Part shown: piece after piece, positions 6,512 to 27,625 of the stretch | Layout: every line of letters starts with the position of its first letter | Position numbering within the stretch: the first letter of the stretch is position 1 | Notes under the pieces: model-generated | Database searches by the model: none | What the model saw: the letters and a program-made list of their open reading frames with translations, nothing else | Told to the model about the DNA's origin: nothing | NCBI GenBank assembly: GCA_003220315.1 | Contig: QHSA01000133.1 | Span: 14,843 to 78,842 of the forward strand | Origin: Candidatus Rokuibacteriota bacterium | GTDB lineage: Bacteria > Methylomirabilota > Methylomirabilia > Rokubacteriales > CSP1-6 | Length of the DNA stretch: 64,000 nt | Direction of reading: 5' to 3' | Made by a program: the position numbers and the translations under genes

Positions 6512-7267
6512 CTACACCCCGAGCCCCCCTCGACGGGCGCCGGCGTGCGCCGCCAACCCGAGGTAGGCGGCACGGACGCGCGGGTCCTCACCGAGCTCCT
6601 GGCTCGTCCCCGCGACGACGACGCGACCCGTCTCGAGCACGTAGCCGCGGCTCGCGAGCCGGAGCGCCCGGCGCGCGTTCTGCTCGACGAGCAGGACGGC
6701 CACGCCCGTCGCGTTGATCCGCTGGATGGTTCGGAAGATCTCGCGCGAGAGCATCGGCGCCAGGCCGAGCGAGGGCTCGTCGAGCAGGAGCAGGCGCGGC
6801 CGGGCCACGAGCGCCCGGGCGATCGCGAGCATCTGCTGCTCGCCGCCGGAGAGCGTGCCCGCGAGCTGGCGCCGCCGCTCGCGCAACACGGGGAAGAGCT
6901 CGAACGCGTCCTCGAGTCGCGCCGCCAGGTCGCGCCGGGGAACCGTATGGCCACCGACGAGCAGATTCTCGAGCACGGTGAACTCGACGAAGACGTCGCG
7001 CCCCTCCGGCACGTGCCCGACACCGGCCGCGACGATCCGGTCCGCGGGCTCACGCGTGATGTCGCGCCCCTCGTAGAGCACGCGGCCTTGCGCGGGCCTC
7101 ACCAGTCCCGAAATCGTTCTCAGCGTCGTGGACTTGCCACTGCCGTTCGCCCCGAGGAGCGCGACGATCTCGCCGCGGCCCACCGTGAGCGAGACGCCCT
7201 CCACCGCGCGGCGCTTGCCGTAGGACACCGCGAGGTCCTCGACCGCGAGCGTCGCCGGCATCCTCAT
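6512..7267 (-). CDS. livF: Branched-chain amino acid ABC transporter ATP-binding protein LivF
   Basis: Walker A GANGSGKST, signature LSGGEQQML, Walker B LLLLDEPS. Start ATG 7267 (MRMPATLAVEDL) preceded by GAGGCGAGCC and overlapped by the TGA of the R2 mini-ORF. Confidence 0.9.
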   Translation of the reverse strand: MRMPATLAVEDLAVSYGKRRAVEGVSLTVGRGEIVALLGANGSGKSTTLRTISGLVRPAQGRVLYEGRDITREPADRIVAAGVGHVPEGRDVFVEFTVLENLLVGGHTVPRRDLAARLEDAFELFPVLRERRRQLAGTLSGGEQQMLAIARALVARPRLLLLDEPSLGLAPMLSREIFRTIQRINATGVAVLLVEQNARRALRLASRGYVLETGRVVVAGTSQELGEDPRVRAAYLGLAAHAGARRGGLGV

Positions 7268-7391
7268 AGGCTCGCCTCGCACGGCGGGGCCGATTTGTAT
7301 CGCTCGCCTCGGGCCTGGGGGCCCCAGCCCCCGGTCGGCCCTGCGGCTCGCCCTGCGGCCCCGCGACGTGCTGCGGCTCGCACTGCCATCC
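7264..7391 (-). repeat. R2-family intergenic element forming a 41-codon mini-ORF between livG and livF
   Basis: ATG 7389 lies 2 nt after the livG stop (TGA 7392-7394). The mini-ORF MAVRAAARRG...PPCEASL ends with TGA 7264-7266 overlapping the livF ATG (ATGA). Shares CTGCGGCTCGCACTGCCATC and GGCGAGGCGAG blocks with 14117-14228 and 23602-23868. Confidence 0.7.
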
Positions 7392-8153
7392 TCAGTCGTC
7401 CTCGCGGCCCAGATAGGCCTCGACCACCGCCGGCTCGACGGCGATCGCGCGCGGCTGGCCCTCGGCGATCTTCCGCCCGTAGTTCAGCACGGCCACGCGG
7501 TCGGAGACGCCCATCACGAGCTCCATGTCGTGCTCGACGAGCAGGATCGTGAGCCCCCGCTCGTCCCGCAGCCGCACGATCAACCCCATGAGCGCCTGGG
7601 TCTCGGTGGGATTGAGGCCGCCGGCGGGCTCGTCGAGCAGCAGGAGCCTGGGCTCCGCGGCGAGCGCGCGCGCGAGCTCGAGGCGCTTCTGGAGCCCGAG
7701 CGGCAGGCTGCGCGCCTCGACGCCGGCCTGGCCCTCGAGCCCCAGGCGCGCCAGGAGCGCGCGCGCGGTCGCGCGCGCCGCGCCCTCCTCCCGAAGGACC
7801 GCGGGGAGCCCGAGCGCGCCGCGGAGCGCGCCCGCGCGGAGGTGGGCGTGGCAGCCGATCAGCACGTTGTCGAGCACGGTGAGCTGGCGAAAGACCTCGG
7901 TGTTCTGGAAGGTGCGCGCGATCCCGCACCGCGCGATCGCGTGCGGTCCCATGGCCAGGAGGTCACGGCCGAGGAAGGTGACGCGACCGGACGCGGGGCG
8001 TTCGAGGCCGGTCACGATGTTGAAGACCGTCGACTTCCCCGCCCCGTTGGGGCCGATCAGCGCCACGATCTCCCGCGCGGCGACCTCGACGGAGAAGCCA
8101 CTCAGCGCGGCGAGGCCGCCGAAGCTGATCGAGAGGTCCTCGACGCGGAGCAC
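7392..8153 (-). CDS. livG: Branched-chain amino acid ABC transporter ATP-binding protein LivG
   Basis: Walker A GPNGAGKST, LSLGLQKRLELARAL signature region, Walker B LLLLDEPAGG. Confidence 0.9.
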   Translation of the reverse strand: MLRVEDLSISFGGLAALSGFSVEVAAREIVALIGPNGAGKSTVFNIVTGLERPASGRVTFLGRDLLAMGPHAIARCGIARTFQNTEVFRQLTVLDNVLIGCHAHLRAGALRGALGLPAVLREEGAARATARALLARLGLEGQAGVEARSLPLGLQKRLELARALAAEPRLLLLDEPAGGLNPTETQALMGLIVRLRDERGLTILLVEHDMELVMGVSDRVAVLNYGRKIAEGQPRAIAVEPAVVEAYLGREDD

Positions 8154-10505: not shown

Positions 10506-10740
10506 GGTCGTTCTCCTTGTAGCGGGGTCCGCGAGCCCGGCGCCATCGGTGGGTGGCCTGAGACCAGGCGCGCCCCGGCTCCGGTCCCCCTGCCGCCGCT
10601 CATTCCAGTCCACGCCGCGAGCCCGGCGCCATCGGTGGGTGGCCTGAGACCAGGCGCGCCCCGGCTCCGGTCCCCCTGCCGCCGCTCATTCCAGTCCACG
10701 CCGCGAGCCCGGCGCCATCGGTGGGTGGCCTGCCCACCGT
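10502..10740 (-). repeat. R1-family tandem repeat (86-bp unit x ~2.35) forming chained mini-ORFs between livM and the SBP gene
   Basis: Units 10531-10616 and 10617-10702, plus a partial unit 10703-10732 that lies inside the livM 3' coding end. The livM TGA (10686-10688) overlaps ATG 10689 of a 28-codon mini-ORF (MSGGRGTGAGARLVSGHPPMAPGSRRGLE). Its TGA overlaps ATG 10603 of a 33-codon mini-ORF whose TGA (10502-10504) overlaps the SBP ATG 10505. Confidence 0.8.
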
Positions 10741-13014: not shown

Positions 13015-14120
13015 TGGATCGCCTTCCGCCACATCGGCGAGGCCCACCCGTCCCGGAGGAACGCAAGAATCTCGCGCCGGCTCAGGTCGCCGAGCCCCAG
13101 GTGCTCGAGCGCGCGGCCGCGGCCCGAGAGCTCGCGCCCGAGCAGCGCGCCGTACACGAGAAGGAGCCCCGTGATCGCGGGCGTCACCGCGCCCGCCGCC
13201 CGCGCGGCCGACTCGAGGAGCGCCAACCCGAGAACCGCGTCCTCGGTGACGTAGCGGTGCTCGAACGTGACGATCTCGCTCCAGAGGCCGCTCGCCACGA
13301 GTTTCGTCTTCGCCCCGGCGCCGTAGAGCCCCTCGGCCGCCCGCGTCTCGTCGTAGTACGTCGCGAGCTCGTAGTGGGGCGCCGCGTAGCCCCAGCCCCG
13401 GCGAGTCGCGACCCGCTCGGCGTCCACGGCGTCGATGAGCCGGCGCACGCTCGGCGTCGTGCCAGCCGCGTGGACGTCGAAGCTGCCACCGTCGATCGCG
13501 CCGGTATTCAGGAGAACGAGCGGGGGGTGGATCACGGGCCCGGCGTTGGTGAGCGCGACATCGAGGGAGTCCGCGCACGGGCGGACGGCCGGGAAGAGCT
13601 CGGCGAGCCGCGGCAAGACGCGCGGGCCCCGCGACGCGGGAAACACGCCGATCGGCAGGTTGGCGGCGCGCAGGGGCGCCTTGACGACCGCGGGCGCCGT
13701 CTTCCGCGTGAGATAGGGCAGCGTCCCGGTCTCGGCGAGGGCGAGCGGTAAGGGGCCGCCGGCGCGCGCAATCCCCCGCGCCATCGCGTAGCTACCGAGC
13801 GTTCCCGGTGTGAGCAGGATGATCTGTCGGTCGTTGAGACACGGCGCCAGGCGCTTGGCGAGCTCCTCGTGGCTCGTCGCGGGTAGCGGGACGATCAGGA
13901 CCTCCGCGCCCTCGACCGCCTCGCCGAGGTCGGTCGTGGCGCGCTCGAGCTGCGCCGTCCCGTGCCGCCCCTCGGCGTCGAGCGTGATCGTCGCGCGCTC
14001 CACGAGCGGGCCGAGCGCGTCCGCCGAGCGGCTCCAGAGCCTGACGCGGTGGCCGGCCAGCGCGAGATCGGCCGCCGTCGCGAAGCCACCATTGCCCGCG
14101 CCCAGGACTGCTAGCTTCAC
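13011..14120 (-). CDS. NAD/NADP-dependent octopine/nopaline (opine) dehydrogenase family oxidoreductase
   Basis: GTG 14120 gives MKLAVLGAGNGGFATAADLALAGHRV, a classic Rossmann N-terminus of the opine dehydrogenase family. The GTG is overlapped by the TGA of the R2 mini-ORF. Confidence 0.7.
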   Translation of the reverse strand: MKLAVLGAGNGGFATAADLALAGHRVRLWSRSADALGPLVERATITLDAEGRHGTAQLERATTDLGEAVEGAEVLIVPLPATSHEELAKRLAPCLNDRQIILLTPGTLGSYAMARGIARAGGPLPLALAETGTLPYLTRKTAPAVVKAPLRAANLPIGVFPASRGPRVLPRLAELFPAVRPCADSLDVALTNAGPVIHPPLVLLNTGAIDGGSFDVHAAGTTPSVRRLIDAVDAERVATRRGWGYAAPHYELATYYDETRAAEGLYGAGAKTKLVASGLWSEIVTFEHRYVTEDAVLGLALLESAARAAGAVTPAITGLLLVYGALLGRELSGRGRALEHLGLGDLSRREILAFLRDGWASPMWRKAIQ

Positions 14121-14228
14121 AGACTCGCCTCGCCTGTGGCTGCGGCTCGCACTGCCACGACGTTCATAAGCTCGCCTCGCACGGCGGGGCCCCAGCCCCA
14201 CGACGTGCTGCGGCTCGCACTGCCATCA
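14117..14228 (-). repeat. R2-family element forming two chained mini-ORFs (20 and 16 codons)
   Basis: The CoA-transferase TGA (14226-14228) overlaps ATG 14226 (TGATG). Mini-ORF1 MAVRAAARRGAGAPPCEASL ends with TGA 14164-14166 overlapping ATG 14167 of mini-ORF2 MNVVAVRAAATGEASL. Its TGA 14117-14119 overlaps the GTG 14120 of the next gene. Confidence 0.7.
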
Positions 14229-15419
14229 CGCCACGACTCCGGCGGCGCGCAGCTCGGCGATCCGCGCGGCGGAGTATTCGAGGACACCGCCGAGCACGGC
14301 CTCGGTGTGCTCGCCGAGTGTGGGCGGCGGCGCCGTCTCGAGCCCCATCGCGCCGTCCACCTTGACCGGCGTGCCGAGCGCCGGGAGCTTGCCGTGGACC
14401 GGATGCGCCGTCTCGAGGACCATGCCGCGCTGGCGCACCTGGGGGTCGGCGAGGACGCGATCGACGGAGCGGATGGGCGCGCCGGGCACGCCCTCCGCCC
14501 CGAGCCGCGCGAGCCAGTCGTCGGTCGTCCGCCGGCGGAAAGCGGCCTCGATCAGCGGGACCAGCACGCCACGGTTCGCGACGCGATCACGATTGGTCCC
14601 GAAGCGCAGGTCGCGCTCCCACTCCGGGTGCTCGACCACGCGGCAGAACCCCGACCAGAACTTCTCGGCGAAGACGGCGACGACCAGGTGACCATCACGC
14701 GTCGCGAGGGCCTGATAGGGGACGACCGAGGCGTGGCTCGAGCCGAGCGGCCCGGGGACGCGACCGTTCGTCCAGAAATACTGCGCAATATACGTGAGGA
14801 GCGAGACCTGGCAGTCGAGCAGCGACAGGTCGAGGTGGGCGCCCTCGCCAGTCCGCTCGCGACGGAAGAGCGCTCCGGCCACCGCAAACGCGCCGAAGAT
14901 CCCGCCCGTGAGGTCGCCCATCGGCAGGCCCATGCGCACCGGCGCCCTCCCCGGCTCGCCCGTGATGGACATCGCCCCGGCCATCGCCTGGAGCGCCAGG
15001 TCGAAGGCCGGCCAGTCGCGATACGGCCCCTCCTGGCCGTAGGCGGAGATCGAGCAGAGGATCACGCGCTGGTTGAGGGACCAGAGCTTGGAGTACGCGC
15101 AGCCGAGACGCTCCATCACGCCGGGGCGGAAGTTCTCCCAGACGACGTCGGCCCGACGGACGAGGTCGTAGAAGACCTCGCGCCCGGCATCCCTGGTGAG
15201 GTCGAGCGCGACGGACTTCTTGCTGCGGTTGATCGCGAGGAAGTACGCCGACTCGCCGTCGGCGAGGAACGGCGGACCCATGACCCGCATCGGGTCGCCG
15301 CCGTCGGGGTCCTCGATCTTGATCACCTCGGCGCCCATGTCGGCGAGCAGCATCGAGCCGTACGGCCCCGCGAGCATGCGGGAGAGGTCGAGCACGCGGA
15401 CGCCCGCGAAGAGCTTCAC
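14226..15419 (-). CDS. CoA-transferase family III (CaiB/BaiF-like)
   Basis: MKLFAGVRVLDLSRMLAGPYGSMLLADMGAEVIKIE, the canonical family III N-terminus. Confidence 0.9.
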   Translation of the reverse strand: MKLFAGVRVLDLSRMLAGPYGSMLLADMGAEVIKIEDPDGGDPMRVMGPPFLADGESAYFLAINRSKKSVALDLTRDAGREVFYDLVRRADVVWENFRPGVMERLGCAYSKLWSLNQRVILCSISAYGQEGPYRDWPAFDLALQAMAGAMSITGEPGRAPVRMGLPMGDLTGGIFGAFAVAGALFRRERTGEGAHLDLSLLDCQVSLLTYIAQYFWTNGRVPGPLGSSHASVVPYQALATRDGHLVVAVFAEKFWSGFCRVVEHPEWERDLRFGTNRDRVANRGVLVPLIEAAFRRRTTDDWLARLGAEGVPGAPIRSVDRVLADPQVRQRGMVLETAHPVHGKLPALGTPVKVDGAMGLETAPPPTLGEHTEAVLGGVLEYSAARIAELRAAGVVA

Positions 15420-20378: not shown

Positions 20379-20652
20379 TGTAGCGAAGTCCGCGAGGCCG
20401 GCGCCATCGGTGGGTGGCCTGAGACCAGGCGCGACCCGGCTCCGGTCCCCATGTCGTGTCTCATTCCAACAGGGTCCGCGAGGCCGGCGCCAGCGGTGGG
20501 TGGCCGTCGGACTGACCGCCCTTCGAGCGCGGGCTTCGCCCGCGCAACCGATCCTGGGGGAGGCTCGGAGGGGGCCGTCGAGGCCCCCTTCGATGAGGTG
20601 GGTGGCCTGAGACCAGGCGCGACCCGGCTCCGGTCGTCCCGGCGCTATTCAT
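20375..20652 (-). repeat. R1-family element (two units, the distal one interrupted by a nested R3 element) forming 63- and 29-codon chained mini-ORFs
   Basis: ATG 20652 lies 2 codons before the metallophosphoesterase TAG (ATGAATAG). Mini-ORF1 reads through R1-partial, R3 and R1 to TGA 20461-20463, which overlaps ATG 20464 of mini-ORF2 (MRHDMGTGAGSRLVSGHPPMAPASRTSLQ). Its TGA 20375-20377 overlaps GTG 20378 of the B12 subunit. Confidence 0.75.
20496..20607. mobile_element. R3 MITE-like element (92 bp) with 10-bp direct target duplication GTGGGTGGCC, nested in R1
   Basis: Insert 20506-20597 flanked by GTGGGTGGCC at 20496-20505 and 20598-20607. Two internal hairpins (GCGCGGGC-TTC-GCCCGCGC; GGGGGCC-GTCGA-GGCCCCC). 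A near-identical copy (3 differences) sits at the same position of a diverged R1 at 27445-27556. Confidence 0.7.
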
Positions 20653-21124: not shown

Positions 21125-21549
21125 GCCGGGGCGAACGCCGGCAGCCATCGGGCGTTGCCCTTGGGGTCGTCGGCGACGCGAAGCGGCGCGAGCCGGACGC
21201 GCTGGCCGATCCTGAGCGCCGCCGGGTCGGCGTCGACGAGGGCCGTGAAGACCCGATGGACGTCGACCTTCACGATCGCAAAGACGCGCGGCCCGTCGAA
21301 GCCCGCGGGAAGCCCCGCCTCCTGCAGCGTGAAGGCGTGGAGCGTTCCCTCGCCCGGGAGGTCCACCCATTCGAACCGGTCCGACGCGCACTCGCCGCAG
21401 AAGCCGCGGGGTGGCCACGCCGTCGTGCGGCAGTCGCGGCAGCGGGTGGTCATGAGCCGCCCCGACGCCAGGCGCGTGTAGAACTCGTGAAGCTTCGTGT
21501 GGTCCGCCGACTCCAGCGGGAAGGGGTCGACCGCGCGGAAATAGGTCAC
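21121..21549 (-). CDS. Zn-ribbon/OB-fold protein (DUF35 family, thiolase-associated)
   Basis: GTG 21549 (GTGA overlap); CRDCRTTAWPPRGFCGEC zinc ribbon followed by an OB fold; the family normally partners SCP2-type thiolases. Confidence 0.75.
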   Translation of the reverse strand: MTYFRAVDPFPLESADHTKLHEFYTRLASGRLMTTRCRDCRTTAWPPRGFCGECASDRFEWVDLPGEGTLHAFTLQEAGLPAGFDGPRVFAIVKVDVHRVFTALVDADPAALRIGQRVRLAPLRVADDPKGNARWLPAFAPA

Positions 21550-22645
21550 GCGCCGACCACCGGCCACTTCGACTCGATGGGGAGTCCCGCGCGCGCGATC
21601 TGCCGCCGGGCGAGCTCTTCCACACGTGCGTAGAGCGCCTGCTCGTCGAGCGTCGTGAGCCGCCCCTCGTCGAGGACGATCCGCCCGTCGATCAGCACGG
21701 TCCGCACACTCGCGCCCGTCGCCGCGTAGACGAGGTTGTTCAACGGATTGAGGAGCGGGCGCCACTCGGGAGTGTCCAGGTCGTAGAGCACCAGGTCGGC
21801 GCGCTTGCCCCGCTCGATCGAGCCGATCTCGCGCTCGAGCAAGAGCGCCGCGGCGCCGTGGAGCGTCGCCATCTCGAGGACGCGCTCGGGGCCCATCACG
21901 CCCACGTCGAGGCGCGCGTCCTTGGAGATCGTGGCGGTGAGGTACATGAGCCGCAGCATGTCGAAGTGGTTCGAGCCGTTCCCGCTGTCGCCCCCGAGCG
22001 AGACCGAGACGCCGGCGTCGAGCATCTCGGGGAACCGGCCGTGGGCGACGAGCCCCTTCGTGTGCTTGAGCGCCGCCGACGGGCAGTGAGAGACCTTCAC
22101 GCCACGCGGACCGCGGCGAGCATCTCCTCGTTCGCGCGGAGCGCGTCGGCCGTGGTCTGGCGCATCCGTCCGGATCCGCCCGCGAGGTCCCACGACCAGC
22201 GCCCGAGGATCGCGCGCATCCCGATCGCCTCGACCGCGTCGGCGACCGCCGCGACGTCGAAGAGCGTGCCCGCCTCACAGAAGGTCGTCGTCCCCGTGCG
22301 GATCATCTCGACGCACGCGAGCTGCGCGGAGACCTGCTCCTCCTCCGGGGTCATGACCGCGTAGAGCGGGATGAGCCAGTCGGGGAGGTAGCGGTCCACC
22401 GGGATGTCGTCGAGGAGGAGGCCGCGATTCAAGTGCTCCGAGAGGTGGACGTGCGTGTCGACGAAGCCGGGGAGCACGAGGCGTCGGCGACCGTCGATCA
22501 CCCGGTCGGGCGCACGCGGCGGCCGCACGTCGACGGCGGGGCCCACGTCCACGATGTCCCGGCCGTCCACGAGCACGGCGCCGTCGCGCAGGATGCGCCG
22601 CTCGCGGTCCACGGTGACGACGGTCGCGTGCTCGATGAGGATCAC
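21546..22645 (-). pseudogene. Amidohydrolase (chlorohydrolase / MTA-SAH deaminase family) disrupted by an internal ~75-aa deletion with frame change
   Basis: Frame A 22097-22645 encodes the N-terminal half, from the HxH metal site region (FVDTHVHLSE) to ...RANEEMLAAVRVA*. Frame B resumes at GTG 22100 with VKVSHCPSAALKHTKG (the HxPxSNxKL region) and continues to 21546. The segment that should carry two metal-ligand His motifs is absent. The fragment junction is a GTGA overlap. Confidence 0.5.
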
Positions 22646-23604
22646 TGGTACGCAGCGTCCTCTCGCACCCGCCTGAGCTGCCGGAGCAGCGCACGGACCT
22701 TGGCGGTCTCGAACGTCTCGCGCCGGTCGCCGGCGTAGTCGAAGAACCCGCGCCCCGTCTTCGGGCCGAGCTCTCGCCTCGCGATCTTCTCCTCGACCAG
22801 GCGCGCCGGCTTGAAGCGGTCGTCACCGAGCGCGTCGGCGAGGAAGCGGCTCGCACGGTGGAGGATGTCCACGCCGCCCCAGTCGATGAACTCGAAGATC
22901 CCGACCTGCGCGTAACGGAAGCCCATCCCCGCCCTGAACGCCCGGTCCACGTCCTCGGGCGACGCGACGCCCTCCTCGACGAGGCGGACCGCCTCGTTCA
23001 TGAGCAACGCCTGTAGCCGCGGCCCGATGAACCCCGGCGAGTCGGCGCACCGCACGGGGACCTTCCCGAGCGCCTCGAGGACCTCGATGGCGCGGTCGAC
23101 GACGGCGGCCGTGGTCGCCTGGCCGGCGACGACCTCCACGAGCGGGACGATGTGGGCGGGGTTGAGCCAGTGCGCGACGAGGAAGCGCTCCGGACGCTCT
23201 ACCGCGTCGGCGAGGTGCCTGGGCGCGATCGTCGAGCTCGTCGAGGCGATGATCGCCCCGGCGCCGACGCGGGTCGAGAGGCGCCCCAGCACCTCGCGCT
23301 TGAGGTCGAGCAGCTCCGGCAGCGCCTCCTGCACGAAAGCGCACGCGTCGAGGCCGTCGAGCCCCGTGCGGTCCTCGATCCGGTCGAGCGCCGACGCGAC
23401 GTCGCCGCCCGCGATCACACCCTCCTCGGTCATGAGCCGGAGGTCGCGGGTGATCTCGCGCCGCGCGTCGGCGAAGACGGCGCGCCGCTCCTCGGGCGTG
23501 CGGGCCTTGACGTCGACGAGGAGGACACGGCGCCCGCCCAAGGCGAAGGCGAGCGCGATCTGGCGCCCGATCCTCCCGGGGCCGAGAACCGCGACTGTAT
23601 TCAT
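22642..23604 (-). CDS. 3-hydroxyacyl-CoA dehydrogenase (NAD-binding, HBD/FadB-type)
   Basis: MNTVAVLGPGRIGRQIALAFALGG Rossmann N-terminus; C-terminal 3HCDH dimerisation domain; ATG 23604 is the last start of the R2 tandem array. Confidence 0.9.
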   Translation of the reverse strand: MNTVAVLGPGRIGRQIALAFALGGRRVLLVDVKARTPEERRAVFADARREITRDLRLMTEEGVIAGGDVASALDRIEDRTGLDGLDACAFVQEALPELLDLKREVLGRLSTRVGAGAIIASTSSTIAPRHLADAVERPERFLVAHWLNPAHIVPLVEVVAGQATTAAVVDRAIEVLEALGKVPVRCADSPGFIGPRLQALLMNEAVRLVEEGVASPEDVDRAFRAGMGFRYAQVGIFEFIDWGGVDILHRASRFLADALGDDRFKPARLVEEKIARRELGPKTGRGFFDYAGDRRETFETAKVRALLRQLRRVREDAAYQ

Positions 23605-23868
23605 AGACTCGCCTCGCCGGCGGCTGCGGCTCGTACGACCACGTTCATAGACTCGCCTCGCCGGCGGCTGCGGCTCGTACGACCACGCTCATAGACTCGC
23701 CTCGCCGACGGCTGCGGCTCGTACGACCACGTTCATAGACTCGCCTCGCCGACGGCTGCGGCTCGTACGACCACGTTCATAGACTCGCCTCGCCGGCGGC
23801 TGCGGCTCGTACGACCACGTTCATAGACTCGCCTCGCCGACGGCTGCGGCTCGTACGACCACGTTCAC
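23602..23868 (-). repeat. R2-family 44-bp tandem array (6 ATG units plus 1 GTG unit), each unit a 15-codon mini-ORF
   Basis: Unit CATAGACTCGCCTCGCCG(G/A)CGGCTGCGGCTCGTACGACCACG(T/C)T at 44-bp period, with start codons at 23604, 23648, 23692, 23736, 23780, 23824 (ATG) and 23868 (GTG). On the minus strand each unit reads (M/V)NVVVRAAA(A/V)GEASL-TGA, with the TGA overlapping the next ATG (ATGA). The thiolase TGA (23865-23867) overlaps the first GTG; the last TGA overlaps the dehydrogenase ATG. Confidence 0.85.
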
Positions 23869-25034
23869 GCCGGTTCGCGCCCGTAAATCATCACGACGTG
23901 CTCGCCCATCCCGCTGTTGTTGTGCGTGAGCCCGATCGCCGCGCCGGGCACCTGGCGGGCGCCGGCCTCGTCGCGGAGCTGGACGAAGACCTCCGCCGCC
24001 TGGGCGACGCCGGTGGCGCCGAGCGGGTGACCGCATCCGATCAGCCCGCCGCGCGGGTTCACGACCACGTCGCCGCCGTAGTCGCCGCGCCCCGCGGCGA
24101 CGAACGCGCCCGCCTCGCCCTTGCCGCAGAAGCCGAGCTCCTCGCACGCAATGAGCTCCGCGATCGCGAAGCAGTCGTGTACCTCGGCGAGGTCGACCTC
24201 GCGCGGCGCGATGCCGGCCATCCGGTACGCGGCCTGCGCCGCACGCCTGAGCGCGGGCCACTGGGCGTAGTCCTCGTGGAGCGAGGTGAGCTGGAAGCCG
24301 TCCAGCGCCTGGCCCGTCCCTCGGATCCAGACCGGCTTGTCGGTCAGCCCGCGCGCCCGCTCCTCGCTCGCGAGGATCACCGCCGCGGCGCCGTCGGTGA
24401 TCGGCGAGCACATGAACAGGCGCAAGGGCGTCGCGATCATCCGCGAGCCGAGCACCTGGTCGAGCGTGGCGCCCTTGTTGAAGTGGGCGTTCGGGTTCTT
24501 GGCGGCATGGGTATGGTTTTTCACGCCGACCATCGCGAGCTGCTCCTCGGTCGTCCCGTACGCGGCCATGTGGCGCTGGGCCGCGAGCGCGAAACAGGGC
24601 GGCGCCGTGAGCCCGAAGGCCGCCTCCCACTCGCGGTCCACCCCGGTGCCCATGTTGAGGATCGCCTCCTCGCCCGTCGGCGCGTTGAGCTTCTCGACGC
24701 CGAGCACCATGACGAGGTCGGCGAGCCCCGCGGCGATGAAGGCGTACGCGTAGCGGATCGCGACGGTGCCCGAGGCGCACATGTGCTCGGTCCGCGCGCT
24801 GAGCGCGCTCGGCTTGATTCCGAGCGCCTCGGCGGCGAGCGAGGAAATATGGGACTGGAAGGCCGTGCGCTCCGGCATCACGGAGCCGACGACGAGACCC
24901 TCGACGTCCTTCGGCTTCACCGCAGGGATCGAGTCGAAGCACGCCTTGCCCGCCTCCCAGATGAGGTCGCGGTAGCTCGCCCGGCGCACGCCGAACTTCG
25001 AGACCCCCGCGCCGACCAGCGCGACTCGTCTCAT
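23865..25034 (-). CDS. Thiolase-like protein (SCP2-type thiolase / lipid-transfer protein family)
   Basis: 389 aa; MRRVALVGAGVSKFG N-terminus; active-site Cys region (EHMCASGT); C-terminal GCGHPLGATG. Confidence 0.9.
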   Translation of the reverse strand: MRRVALVGAGVSKFGVRRASYRDLIWEAGKACFDSIPAVKPKDVEGLVVGSVMPERTAFQSHISSLAAEALGIKPSALSARTEHMCASGTVAIRYAYAFIAAGLADLVMVLGVEKLNAPTGEEAILNMGTGVDREWEAAFGLTAPPCFALAAQRHMAAYGTTEEQLAMVGVKNHTHAAKNPNAHFNKGATLDQVLGSRMIATPLRLFMCSPITDGAAAVILASEERARGLTDKPVWIRGTGQALDGFQLTSLHEDYAQWPALRRAAQAAYRMAGIAPREVDLAEVHDCFAIAELIACEELGFCGKGEAGAFVAAGRGDYGGDVVVNPRGGLIGCGHPLGATGVAQAAEVFVQLRDEAGARQVPGAAIGLTHNNSGMGEHVVMIYGREPA

Positions 25035-25711
25035 CTCATCCTCCCGCGCGCACCCGCGTCGATCGCTTCGGCGATCGCCGCGTGTCCGGCCTGGCGGGCC
25101 ACATCCGCCGGCGTTTGCCCCTCGTGGTTCCCGGTCTCTGGATCCGCGCCCGCCGCGAGCAGCAGCCGCACGACCTCGGCGTCGCCGCCGAGCGCAGCCT
25201 CGTGCAGTGGCGTGTGTCCGCCGCTCTGCCGCGCGTTCACGCGCGCGCCCGCGTCGAGCAGGCGACGCATGAGCGCGGCGCCAGCGCGACCGGCTGCGGC
25301 CGCGTGCAACGGCGCGTTGGCGTGGCCGTTGCGCGACGTCGCGTTCACGTCGGCGCCACGCGCCAGCAACACGTCCACCATCGCCGTGTGGCGAAAGTGA
25401 CCCGCGAGGTGCAGCGGCGTCCAGCCATCCGGCGCATGCGCGTTCACGAGCGTCGGGTCGGTGTCGAGCAGCGCGCGCACGCGGTCGACGTCGCCCGCCG
25501 CGGCGGCCTCGAACACGTCGAGCGTGGCGCCCCGGGCGCGCAGGAGCGTCAGGACGTCGGGCGCCCGATGATAGATGGCGAGCAAGACCGGGGTCTCACC
25601 CGACGCGGTGCGCGCGGTCACCAGGCTCGGGTCACGGTCGAGGGCGGCCACCGCCGCCGCTCGATCCCGACCCCTGACCGCCGCCAGCAGTTCGTCCACC
25701 GGGCGCGTCAC
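25031..25711 (-). CDS. Ankyrin-repeat protein
   Basis: GTG 25711 (GTGA overlap); 4-5 ANK repeats (GWTPLHLAGHFRHTAMVDVLLARGADVNA..., GHTPLHEAALGGDAEVVRLLLAAGADPE). Confidence 0.8.
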   Translation of the reverse strand: MTRPVDELLAAVRGRDRAAAVAALDRDPSLVTARTASGETPVLLAIYHRAPDVLTLLRARGATLDVFEAAAAGDVDRVRALLDTDPTLVNAHAPDGWTPLHLAGHFRHTAMVDVLLARGADVNATSRNGHANAPLHAAAAGRAGAALMRRLLDAGARVNARQSGGHTPLHEAALGGDAEVVRLLLAAGADPETGNHEGQTPADVARQAGHAAIAEAIDAGARGRMR

Positions 25712-26184
25712 GGGCGCCTCCGCATGAGGACGCTCTCCTCGTAGCCGCACACGGTGTCGCCCCGCTGGTTCTTCACGACCGCGCTCAAGATCACGACGCC
25801 ACGGTCGGGCCTGGACGTCTCGCGGCACGCCGTGACGGTCATCTCGGTGTGCACGGTGTCGCCGAACTTGACGGGCGCGGTGAAGCGGACCCGGTCGAGC
25901 CCGAGGAGCGCGAGCGTCGTCCCCTCGAACCAGCCCGCGAGGTTCTGCGCGCCGTTGGAGACCGCGAGCGTGAGGATGCCGTGGGCGACGCGCGCGCCAA
26001 ACGGCGTCGTCGTCGCGTACTCCTCGTCCGTGTGGAGCGGGTTGAAGTCGCCCGTGAGCCCGGCGAAGCGCGAGACGTCGCCGCCGTCCACCGTGCGCCG
26101 TCCGGTCACGAGCACCTCGCCGACCTCGAAATCCTCCCAGTAGCGTCCGCGTGGTCGCGACGTCCCTCCCCGTGTCGTCGTCAT
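25708..26184 (-). CDS. MaoC-like (R)-specific enoyl-CoA hydratase / hotdog dehydratase
   Basis: 159 aa; DFNPLHTDEEYA hydratase motif. Confidence 0.85.
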   Translation of the reverse strand: MTTTRGGTSRPRGRYWEDFEVGEVLVTGRRTVDGGDVSRFAGLTGDFNPLHTDEEYATTTPFGARVAHGILTLAVSNGAQNLAGWFEGTTLALLGLDRVRFTAPVKFGDTVHTEMTVTACRETSRPDRGVVILSAVVKNQRGDTVCGYEESVLMRRRP

Positions 26185-27344: not shown

Positions 27345-27625
27345 TGTAACGGGGGCCGCGGGGCCGCCACACTCCGTGGGTGGCCTGAGACAAGGCGCGA
27401 CCCGGTTCCGTTCCGTAACGGGGGCCGCGGGGCCGCCACACTCCGTGGGTGGCCGTCGGACCGACCGCCCTTCGAGCGCGGGCTTCGCCCGCGCCACCGA
27501 TCCTGGGGGAGGCTCGGAGGGGGCCGTCGAGGCCCCCTTCGATGAGGTGGGGGGCCTGAGACGAGGTGCGACCCGGGCCCGTTCGGCACGCCGCCGCGTT
27601 TCATTCCACCGGGCGCGGCACTCAT
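27341..27625 (-). repeat. R1-family element (two units, the distal one carrying a nested R3) forming a 94-codon mini-ORF
   Basis: ATG 27625 overlaps the hyuB TGA (ATGA); the ORF reads through R1, R3 and R1 (…HLVSGPPPHRRGPRRPPPSLPQDRWRGRSPRSKGG…RLVSGHP…) to TGA 27341-27343, which overlaps the ACAD ATG 27344. Confidence 0.75.
27445..27556. mobile_element. R3 MITE-like element (92 bp) with 10-bp target duplication (GTGGGTGGCC / GTGGGGGGCC), nested in R1
   Basis: Insert 27455-27546; differs from the 20506-20597 copy at 3 positions, whereas the flanking R1 sequences differ extensively. Confidence 0.7.

Follow-up and report, generated by a model that had tools for sequence, protein, structure and literature searches.

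Mycobacterial interspersed repetitive units (MIRUs) are in worldwide use for strain typing, and to our knowledge elements of this type have been known since 1997 from essentially one genus. Here we describe a tandem array of 44-nt units, which lies between a thiolase gene and a 3-hydroxyacyl-CoA dehydrogenase (HADH) gene in a 64,000-nt stretch of DNA from a Candidatus Rokuibacteriota bacterium (positions 14,843 to 78,842 of contig QHSA01000133.1, assembly GCA_003220315.1; this whole stretch is called the window). We consider it likely that the units are copies of a short, non-palindromic interspersed repeat of the Rokubacteria (Methylomirabilota), clustered here in variable number and built like the mycobacterial MIRU.

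REP/BIME, ERIC, Correia/NEMIS and MITE-like repeats are imperfect palindromes or have terminal inverted repeats, and they are often transcribed together with the flanking genes. The Rokubacteria unit resembles REP/BIME, ERIC and Correia/NEMIS in being short, abundant, intergenic and confined to a lineage, but it has neither a palindrome nor terminal inverted repeats, and it is strictly gene-oriented and registered on start codons. The closest known system is the MIRU. MIRUs measure 40-100 bp and occupy 41 loci in H37Rv, 12 of them polymorphic (PMC2734929). In the account of Supply 1997 given in PMC12548453, they are apparently mobile and insert at start codons, with the MIRU open reading frame (ORF) coupled at a spacing of -4 nt, presumably minimising the impact on expression.

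All of the MIRU structural features that were checked are present in the Rokubacteria unit, the likeness being one of architecture, with the MIRU taken from published descriptions. Both consist of short (tens of nt) non-palindromic units, single or in tandem, which here number one to seven and fall, again as in MIRUs, into related size classes (41, 44, 47 and 62 nt). Both are dispersed over many loci (here three in the window, and at least 20 junctions) and lie between co-oriented operon genes or in 5' leaders (here 78 of 83 clusters). Each unit holds a small ORF which overlaps the start and stop of its neighbours (NTGA, -4 nt; here 135 of 154 steps are RTGA), some loci differ between strains in the number of tandem copies (here one to seven units at the thiolase/HADH junction, and one to three at three others), and insertion is apparently at start codons. 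The differences are that the hosts are uncultured Rokubacteria/Methylomirabilota and not Mycobacterium, that the units lie at the short end of the MIRU size range or below it, and that empty orthologous sites, in the form of plain RTGA overlaps, are directly documented here at two junctions. Because the host phylum differs, and because the comparison is one of structure, we call the family MIRU-like and not MIRU; the two presumably arose independently. Literature searches brought up no description of such repeats for Rokubacteria or Methylomirabilota, nor any MIRU-like family from another phylum. The family therefore reads as undescribed in Rokubacteria, and as MIRU-like by build.

Two further systems share parts of the design. 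RTGA is the commonest natural coupling motif at NTGA overlaps, where translation passes from one gene to the next by termination-reinitiation (PMC12548453). Each step of the present chain is likewise an RTGA, with a Shine-Dalgarno (SD) sequence upstream inside the preceding ORF; however, natural coupled pairs have one junction, whereas here up to seven follow in series, through mini-ORFs predicted to be non-functional. In the synthetic bicistronic design, as summarised in PMC12548453 (its ref. 78), the SD of the gene of interest lies inside a short leader ORF whose end falls on the start codon of that gene, so that ribosomes are brought to it and local RNA structure matters less. The mini-ORFs here have the same layout, a short ORF that contains the SD of the downstream gene and overlaps its start, but the engineered leader is single-copy and immobile, while the Rokubacteria element is natural, repeated and dispersed.

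Anatomy of the array

The array occupies 23604-23867 on the minus strand, and consists of six complete head-to-tail units. By direct reading and Tandem Repeats Finder, units 1-6 lie at 23824-23867, 23780-23823, 23736-23779, 23692-23735, 23648-23691 and 23604-23647. Tandem Repeats Finder reports 23600-23867 with a period of 44, 6.1 copies, 97% matches and a score of 508, which makes it by far the strongest tandem repeat of the whole window; a pattern search for the 44-nt unit gave exactly 6 matches in the sequence, as against 0 in 100 shuffles. On the minus strand the unit reads TGAACGTGGTCGTACGAGCCGCAGCCG[T/C]CGGCGAGGCGAGTCTA. The six units differ only at position 4 (A/G, with G in one unit) and position 28 (T/C). 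The TGAA at 23600-23603 matches the opening 4 nt of the unit and is part of the HADH start region.

Each unit is read as a mini-ORF of 15 codons. The starts are GTG 23868, followed by ATG 23824, 23780, 23736, 23692 and 23648, and with their stop codons the translated mini-ORFs span 23821-23868 (GTG), 23777-23824, 23733-23780, 23689-23736, 23645-23692 and 23601-23648 (ATG), all on the minus strand. The peptide pattern is (V/M)(N/S)VVVRAAA(V/A)GEASL, the mini-ORF from GTG 23868 giving VNVVVRAAAVGEASL followed by the stop, and the other five M(N/S)VVVRAAA(V/A)GEASL followed by the stop. The TGA of each mini-ORF overlaps the following start as ATGA. At the two ends, the thiolase TGA (23867-23865) overlaps the first GTG, and the last mini-ORF TGA (23603-23601) overlaps the HADH ATG at 23604. 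Every unit also contains an SD-like purine block, GGCGAGGCGAG, which is the best-conserved portion of the family core, and whose GAGG stands 7 nt upstream of each ATG. In the last unit, by direct reading, this block is at 23608-23618 and precedes the HADH ATG; the others follow in 44-nt steps at 23652-23662, 23696-23706, 23740-23750, 23784-23794 and 23828-23838, also on the minus strand.

The array was first noticed by inspection of the window without database searches. This original prediction was right about the 15-codon mini-ORFs chained by ATGA overlaps, the overlaps with the genes at either end, the purine-rich block at the position of a ribosome-binding site, and the restriction of variation to two positions. 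It counted seven units, however; the chained 44-nt units stand, but there are six units and six mini-ORFs, since the start at 23604 is HADH's own. The proposed seven rounds of termination and reinitiation are correct as a count (six into mini-ORFs and a seventh into HADH). Because every unit has an SD, and the distance from the last SD to the ATG is constant, initiation at HADH need not rely on seven serial reinitiations.

Several other classes of element were considered for the unit. RNA folds of one and of three units, and DNA folds of one unit on both strands, were no better than those of shuffled sequences (z = 0.36 to 1.14), and terminal inverted repeats are absent from the unit, with 4/10 as the best match between its inverted ends; a REP/BIME or MITE-like palindromic repeat is rejected on these grounds. 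A leader-peptide transcription attenuator is rejected because no promoter- or terminator-like sites were found in 22500-25200, no antiterminator or hairpin was found in the array region, there is no significant structure, and an Rfam E-value scan of 23400-24000 gave no match. The units are contiguous, head to tail and without spacers, and are therefore not a CRISPR array.

Insertion at a stop/start overlap

A search for HADH homologues was used to obtain the same locus from six relatives, with HADH identities of 92, 90, 87, 84, 82 and 78%. The unit is absent from all six, and in each of them there is a 4-base overlap between thiolase stop and HADH start, GTGA in five relatives and ATGA in one. 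The relatives carry an SD (GGAG or GAGG) within the last thiolase codons, ahead of the GTG. In the window species the junction reads ...GCG TGA [ACGTGG...GAGTCTA TGA] ATACAGTC, and by comparison with the relatives one inserted unit amounts to 44 extra bases, with TGA(A) at either side. The alignment indicates that one 44-nt copy entered exactly at the GTGA overlap of thiolase stop and HADH start in an ancestor of this species, and that this insertion supplied HADH with a new SD and a new ATG. The inserted copy was later amplified in tandem. The original suggestion of a recent expansion is borne out, the units being near-identical and the closest relatives lacking the unit altogether. Local duplication of a native spacer is ruled out by the empty sites in the relatives together with the dispersed copies described below.

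A second junction, between a CoA-transferase-like gene and an opine-dehydrogenase-like gene, gives a similar picture: relatives at 88% and 84% have an empty ATGA/GTGA, while those at 90% and 79% have two units and one unit, respectively. Orthologous sites without the unit are therefore documented at two junctions, in six relatives at the first and in two at the second.

No consistent target duplication beyond TGA was found across 18 junctions. At these junctions the 5' part of the unit matches its own downstream gene at a mean of 7.2/14 positions, compared with 6.5/14 for other downstream genes (permutation p = 0.02, driven by two loci). As this excess is marginal, the 5' part is counted as belonging to the element. 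One of the comparison contigs, L152 (about 657-735), has a single 44-nt unit in which a perfect 15-nt direct repeat, TGATCGTGGCCGTGC, flanks the 29-nt core: the first 15 nt of the unit equal the 15 nt of the downstream gene that follow the first base of its start codon. This may hint at insertion by duplication of the target or by homology-guided copying, although the feature is not a general one.

A dispersed repeat family

The 25-nt core GAGCCGCAGCCGNCGGCGAGGCGAG was used as a probe against one genome per species, metagenome contigs and viral contigs. It matched 23 stretches in the species-representative genomes, nearly all of them metagenome-assembled genomes (MAGs) of Candidatus Rokubacteria/Rokuibacteriota/Methylomirabilota, and 97 stretches in metagenome contigs. 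The species-representative matches have tandem periods of 44, 41, 42 and 63 nt, and up to three loci per MAG carry the exact 25-mer, at many distinct gene junctions. Altogether, MAGs of Rokubacteria (Methylomirabilota) and soil metagenomes show the core at no fewer than 20 further gene junctions, two of which lie in the window. The unit is therefore not particular to this locus, but one copy of a dispersed family that inserts at RTGA overlaps and before start codons. Because of this, the chained mini-ORFs are a built-in property of the element, and are not evidence of an operon-specific regulator. Carriage by phage was considered and rejected, as the core gave no match in the viral contigs. 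A link to a mobile-element gene was also rejected: a recurrent 65-aa ORF after the element (MQRLQRS...) represents one orthologous locus, in which the small ORF is followed by a further conserved ORF, and is not a transposase.

The family consensus is TGA-(N)CGTGGNNGTG-CGAGCCGCAGCCGNCGGCGAGGCGAG-YCTR and then TGA, with an element length of about 41-47 nt. The layout is a stop codon first, then the SD-like GGCGAGGCGAG, then an RTG-A end, in a length of 3n+2 that has no in-frame stop. The core is free at one central position (N in GCCG-N-CGGC), and is otherwise near-exact across species and junctions.

Three loci of the family are found in the window, all on the minus strand and co-oriented with the genes. 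The second, at 14120-14228, consists of a 62-nt unit (14167-14228) and a 47-nt unit (14120-14166). The CoA-transferase-like gene (stop 14228-14226) precedes it and the opine-dehydrogenase-like gene (GTG 14120) follows, and it forms the chain GTGA-21 codons-ATGA-16 codons-GTGA. The third, at 7264-7394, is a degenerate long copy recognised from partial nhmmer hits and translation. It lies between two ABC-ATPase-like genes (upstream stop 7394-7392, downstream ATG 7267), and contains a 41-codon mini-ORF that runs from ATG 7389 to a TGA at 7266-7264, overlapping the ATG at 7267.

Two variant forms were seen. In long units (14167-14228 and 7264-7394 in the window, and contigs L043, L105 and L116) a G/C-rich insert, in which there is a GGGGC/GCCCC inverted repeat, interrupts the core (...GCAGCACGTCG(Y)GGGGC...GCCCCGCCGTGCGAGGCGAG); these forms recall the MIRU size classes. 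A second subtype, subtype b (L030 5366-5855, L042 7058-7176, L031, L032 and L021), shares the 25-nt core and then continues ...GGCGAGGCGAGCGGAT..., with periods of 42 or 63 nt, which are multiples of 3, and with no stop per unit. Its array in the MAG contig L030 has at least eight copies.

Chains across junctions

Chains were followed from the upstream stop codon, through successive overlapping starts, to the downstream gene. An unbroken chain was found at 47 loci, representing 20 distinct junctions, with RTGA overlaps making up 135 of the 154 steps. Unit lengths are 41, 44, 47 and 62 nt, each of them 3n+2. Single-unit mini-ORFs of 13-16 codons account for 73 of the 107 counted, and the remainder are mostly linker ORFs of 5-7 codons or fused multi-unit ORFs. 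Strict chains are present at 18 of 20 junctions, compared with 23% of length-preserving shuffles; since spacer length is preserved this control is lenient, and the result is significant but not overwhelming. The recurrence of the stop/start overlaps at 20 independent junctions means that the architecture is not accidental.

In 78 of 83 evaluable clusters of the main type (type a), a gene on the same strand starts at the terminal RTG (63 clusters) or no more than 75 nt away (15 clusters). The family is dispersed, co-oriented with genes and registered on start codons. The downstream N-termini appear genuine, for example VIKVEGL... (ABC ATPase), VIAIIDYGRGNLG (HisH) and MNTVAVLGPGRIG (HADH). Some copies stand in 5' leaders, behind promoter-like sequences, and L106 and L140 each have two oppositely oriented copies, each facing its own gene.

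It is worth adding that in L024 (about 2340-2445) and L029 (about 30-125; element strand) the upstream ORF apparently reads in frame through the unit, ending ...GGSEGVAVRAAAAGEASP and a stop. Here the unit would add a C-terminal tail to the upstream protein, with no separate mini-ORF.

Copy number in soil populations

Exact-sequence look-ups of both flanking proteins gave 20 contigs, from several soil metagenome projects and the NCBI MAG GCA_001919765.1. Over several kilobases their identity to the window is about 99%, which places them with it in one species-level population. Further contigs came from the metagenome scan, bringing the total to 26 sequences of the thiolase/HADH junction, from 24 distinct contigs and several assemblers and sites. 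The number of units is one in 11 sequences, two in five, three in one, four in three, five in one, six in three and seven in two, so that a single unit is the commonest allele. The mini-ORF chain is intact in all 26, each unit retaining its start codon, open frame and TGA. Alleles with one unit (44 nt) or two (88 nt) are secure, being shorter than the k-mer of 141 to which the contig names (k141) point. Independent assemblies share the order of unit variants, AT AC AT AT GC AC in the window and AT AC GC AT AT GC AC in L017, which argues for descent with internal gain and loss, and not for assembler noise. The array is real and shows natural copy-number polymorphism, as originally proposed, and alleles of one to seven units now coexist in soil populations. 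Copy number varies elsewhere too, with one to three units at each of the ABC ATPase, HisH and WbqC-like junctions.

Proposed mechanism and alternative explanations

In a MIRU-like repeat of this design, tandem amplification probably takes place by slippage or unequal recombination, which the TGAA at either end of a unit would permit. Any unit that is inserted or duplicated would become a mini-ORF, starting on the previous stop (RTGA) and stopping on the next start, and ribosomes could terminate and reinitiate, or load anew at each SD, until HADH is reached. Because each unit forms a chained mini-ORF with an SD, the intercistronic RNA would stay translated and the downstream gene would retain a good initiation site. 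The stop-SD-start design would in this way permit insertion and amplification within operons with translation unbroken. The element is probably in the main a selfish or near-neutral passenger, whose architecture allows it to persist inside operons. Its copy number may modestly shift the thiolase:HADH ratio, which would not be its reason for existing.

A number of observations weigh against this interpretation. The 5' half of the core (CGAGCCGCAGCCG) is strongly conserved, and a bound factor may be responsible. No mobilising enzyme or insertion mechanism was identified. Copy numbers above about three come from short-read assemblies (k = 141) and are possibly mis-estimated. A few units are off-frame (42 and 45 nt), lack a stop and fuse with the next unit, although the chains that hold them nonetheless end correctly. 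Chain integrity follows automatically from the structure of the element and its youth, and within one array is no independent sign of selection. Finally, the SD that the relatives have at the end of the thiolase gene is lost in the window species (GCGAACCGGCGTGA), so that the first mini-ORF has none, which suggests that selection on translating the chain itself is weak. The same loss makes the GGCGAGGCGAG of the insert, with its GAGG 7 nt from the ATG, most plausibly the working SD of HADH, as judged from the sequence.

A stronger form of the proposal is that Rokubacteria hold an active non-autonomous mobile element of a mechanistic class not known so far, which specifically targets RTGA overlaps and start codons, arose independently of the mycobacterial MIRUs and converged with them on a 'translation-transparent' design, and whose rapid gain and loss of tandem copies provides natural populations with a heritable, graded dial of operon stoichiometry. 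This is put forward only tentatively. If it is true, the occupied and empty sites in metagenomes make MIRU-type movement and its role directly testable.

Rather less likely is that the array at this junction is an adaptive expression dial, in which the number of termination-reinitiation steps sets the HADH made per thiolase, and strains are selected for copy number. Copy number is indeed polymorphic in nature, and coupling efficiency depends on spacing and SD (PMC12548453). In Mycobacterium tuberculosis, moreover, the length of the MIRU variable-number tandem repeat upstream of fpg1 correlated with the level of fpg1 mRNA (PMC2734929), and the same paper, citing Supply 1997, mentions 'differential translation within a polycistronic operon' as a proposal for MIRUs. 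However, the same element is present at 20 or more unrelated junctions and in 5' leaders, and so was not made for this operon; at any copy number the last unit sets an identical SD and ATG before HADH; one copy is the commonest state, and relatives manage with a plain 4-nt overlap; and no attenuator-type structure was found. Attenuation of HADH expression by copy number is possible but unsupported.

Still less probable is that the conserved core is a recognition site for protein or RNA (for an RNA-binding regulator, RNase processing or a DNA-binding protein), with the mini-ORFs incidental. A 25-nt core that is near-exact across species and junctions, with one free central position, resembles a binding site more than a peptide, and subtype b (L030 and L042, with periods of 42 and 63 nt) shares the core and not the stop/start ending. 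Against this, the units are strictly co-oriented with genes and their 3' ends are registered on start codons, which points to a constraint acting on translation; the best-conserved stretch on the 3' side is an SD-like purine block, spaced from the start as an SD would be; and the high identity is equally well explained by recent spread.

Two other explanations are very improbable. That the six copies are an expansion or collapse by the assembler would be in keeping with the difficulty of assembling arrays beyond k-mer or read length, and with comparison contigs that are mostly short-read (k141_ names); but the 44- and 88-nt alleles are spanned by single k-mers and yet differ from each other and from longer alleles, JGI, ENA and NCBI MAG assemblies agree on integer multiples and on the internal order of unit variants, and other junctions behave likewise, as does the long subtype-b array in L030. 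A function of the mini-ORF products as small peptides or leader peptides, (M/V)NVVVRAAAxGEASL, would fit their open frames with starts and SDs and the similar peptide encoded at many loci, but conservation is at the nucleotide level and not that of the peptide: the free core position changes the residue (V/A/G/D), the endings vary (SL, SQ, SR, SP, RR), the N-terminal portion differs by junction, and where units are off-frame (for example ASRSRRRGES in L033 and L034) the change of reading frame has no consequence.

On the MIRU-like reading, an uncultured soil phylum has a second family, apparently of independent origin, which suggests that the design (a stop codon, an SD, a start overlapping the next stop, and a unit length of 3n+2) may be general for short repeats that colonise operons. 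The precisely empty orthologous sites, the many occupied junctions and the natural alleles of one to seven copies provide material for study, the alleles being ready-made constructs for serial termination-reinitiation. Copy number is also a potential typing marker for Rokubacteria populations, and arrays of this sort cause inconsistencies of gene calling and assembly in high-GC MAGs.

Flanking genes and other features of the window

The gene upstream of the array encodes a thiolase of 389 aa (23865-25034, minus strand; Pfam Thiolase_N and Thiolase_C_1; stop TGA 23867-23865). Its 3' end reads CGC GAA CCG GCG TGA on the minus strand, and the identical protein is found on many soil contigs. The downstream gene encodes HADH, 320 aa (22642-23604, minus strand; Pfam 3HCDH_N and 3HCDH). 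It starts at ATG 23604-23602, which is provided by the last unit, and its N-terminus, given above, aligns with that of the relatives. According to the gene calls, the remaining junctions of the thiolase/HADH operon are overlaps of 1 or 4 nt.

A separate repeat family is present in the window at 10518-10735, 20472-20627 and 27425-27576. It includes an 86-nt unit in 2.4 tandem copies at 100% identity (10529-10732), and related intergenic copies of about 150 nt lie 3' of a metallophosphoesterase gene and 5' of an acyl-CoA dehydrogenase gene. These copies differ among the population contigs, L002 and L004 holding a copy of the 86-nt family and L001 being without it.

All 20 population contigs have 262 nt (L001 4501-4762) that are missing in the window, at 22105-22107, from an amidohydrolase gene (minus strand, about 21281-22645). 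The loss shifts the reading frame, with a stop after 182 aa, and represents either a strain-specific pseudogene or a misassembly. Upstream of the thiolase gene (about 25031-25714 of the window) there is an ankyrin-repeat gene, which is unusual inside a beta-oxidation-like operon. It is called as one ORF of 226 aa in some contigs and as two ORFs (120 and 116 aa) in others (L008, L011, L012 and others versus L001 and L003), which suggests a frameshift polymorphism.

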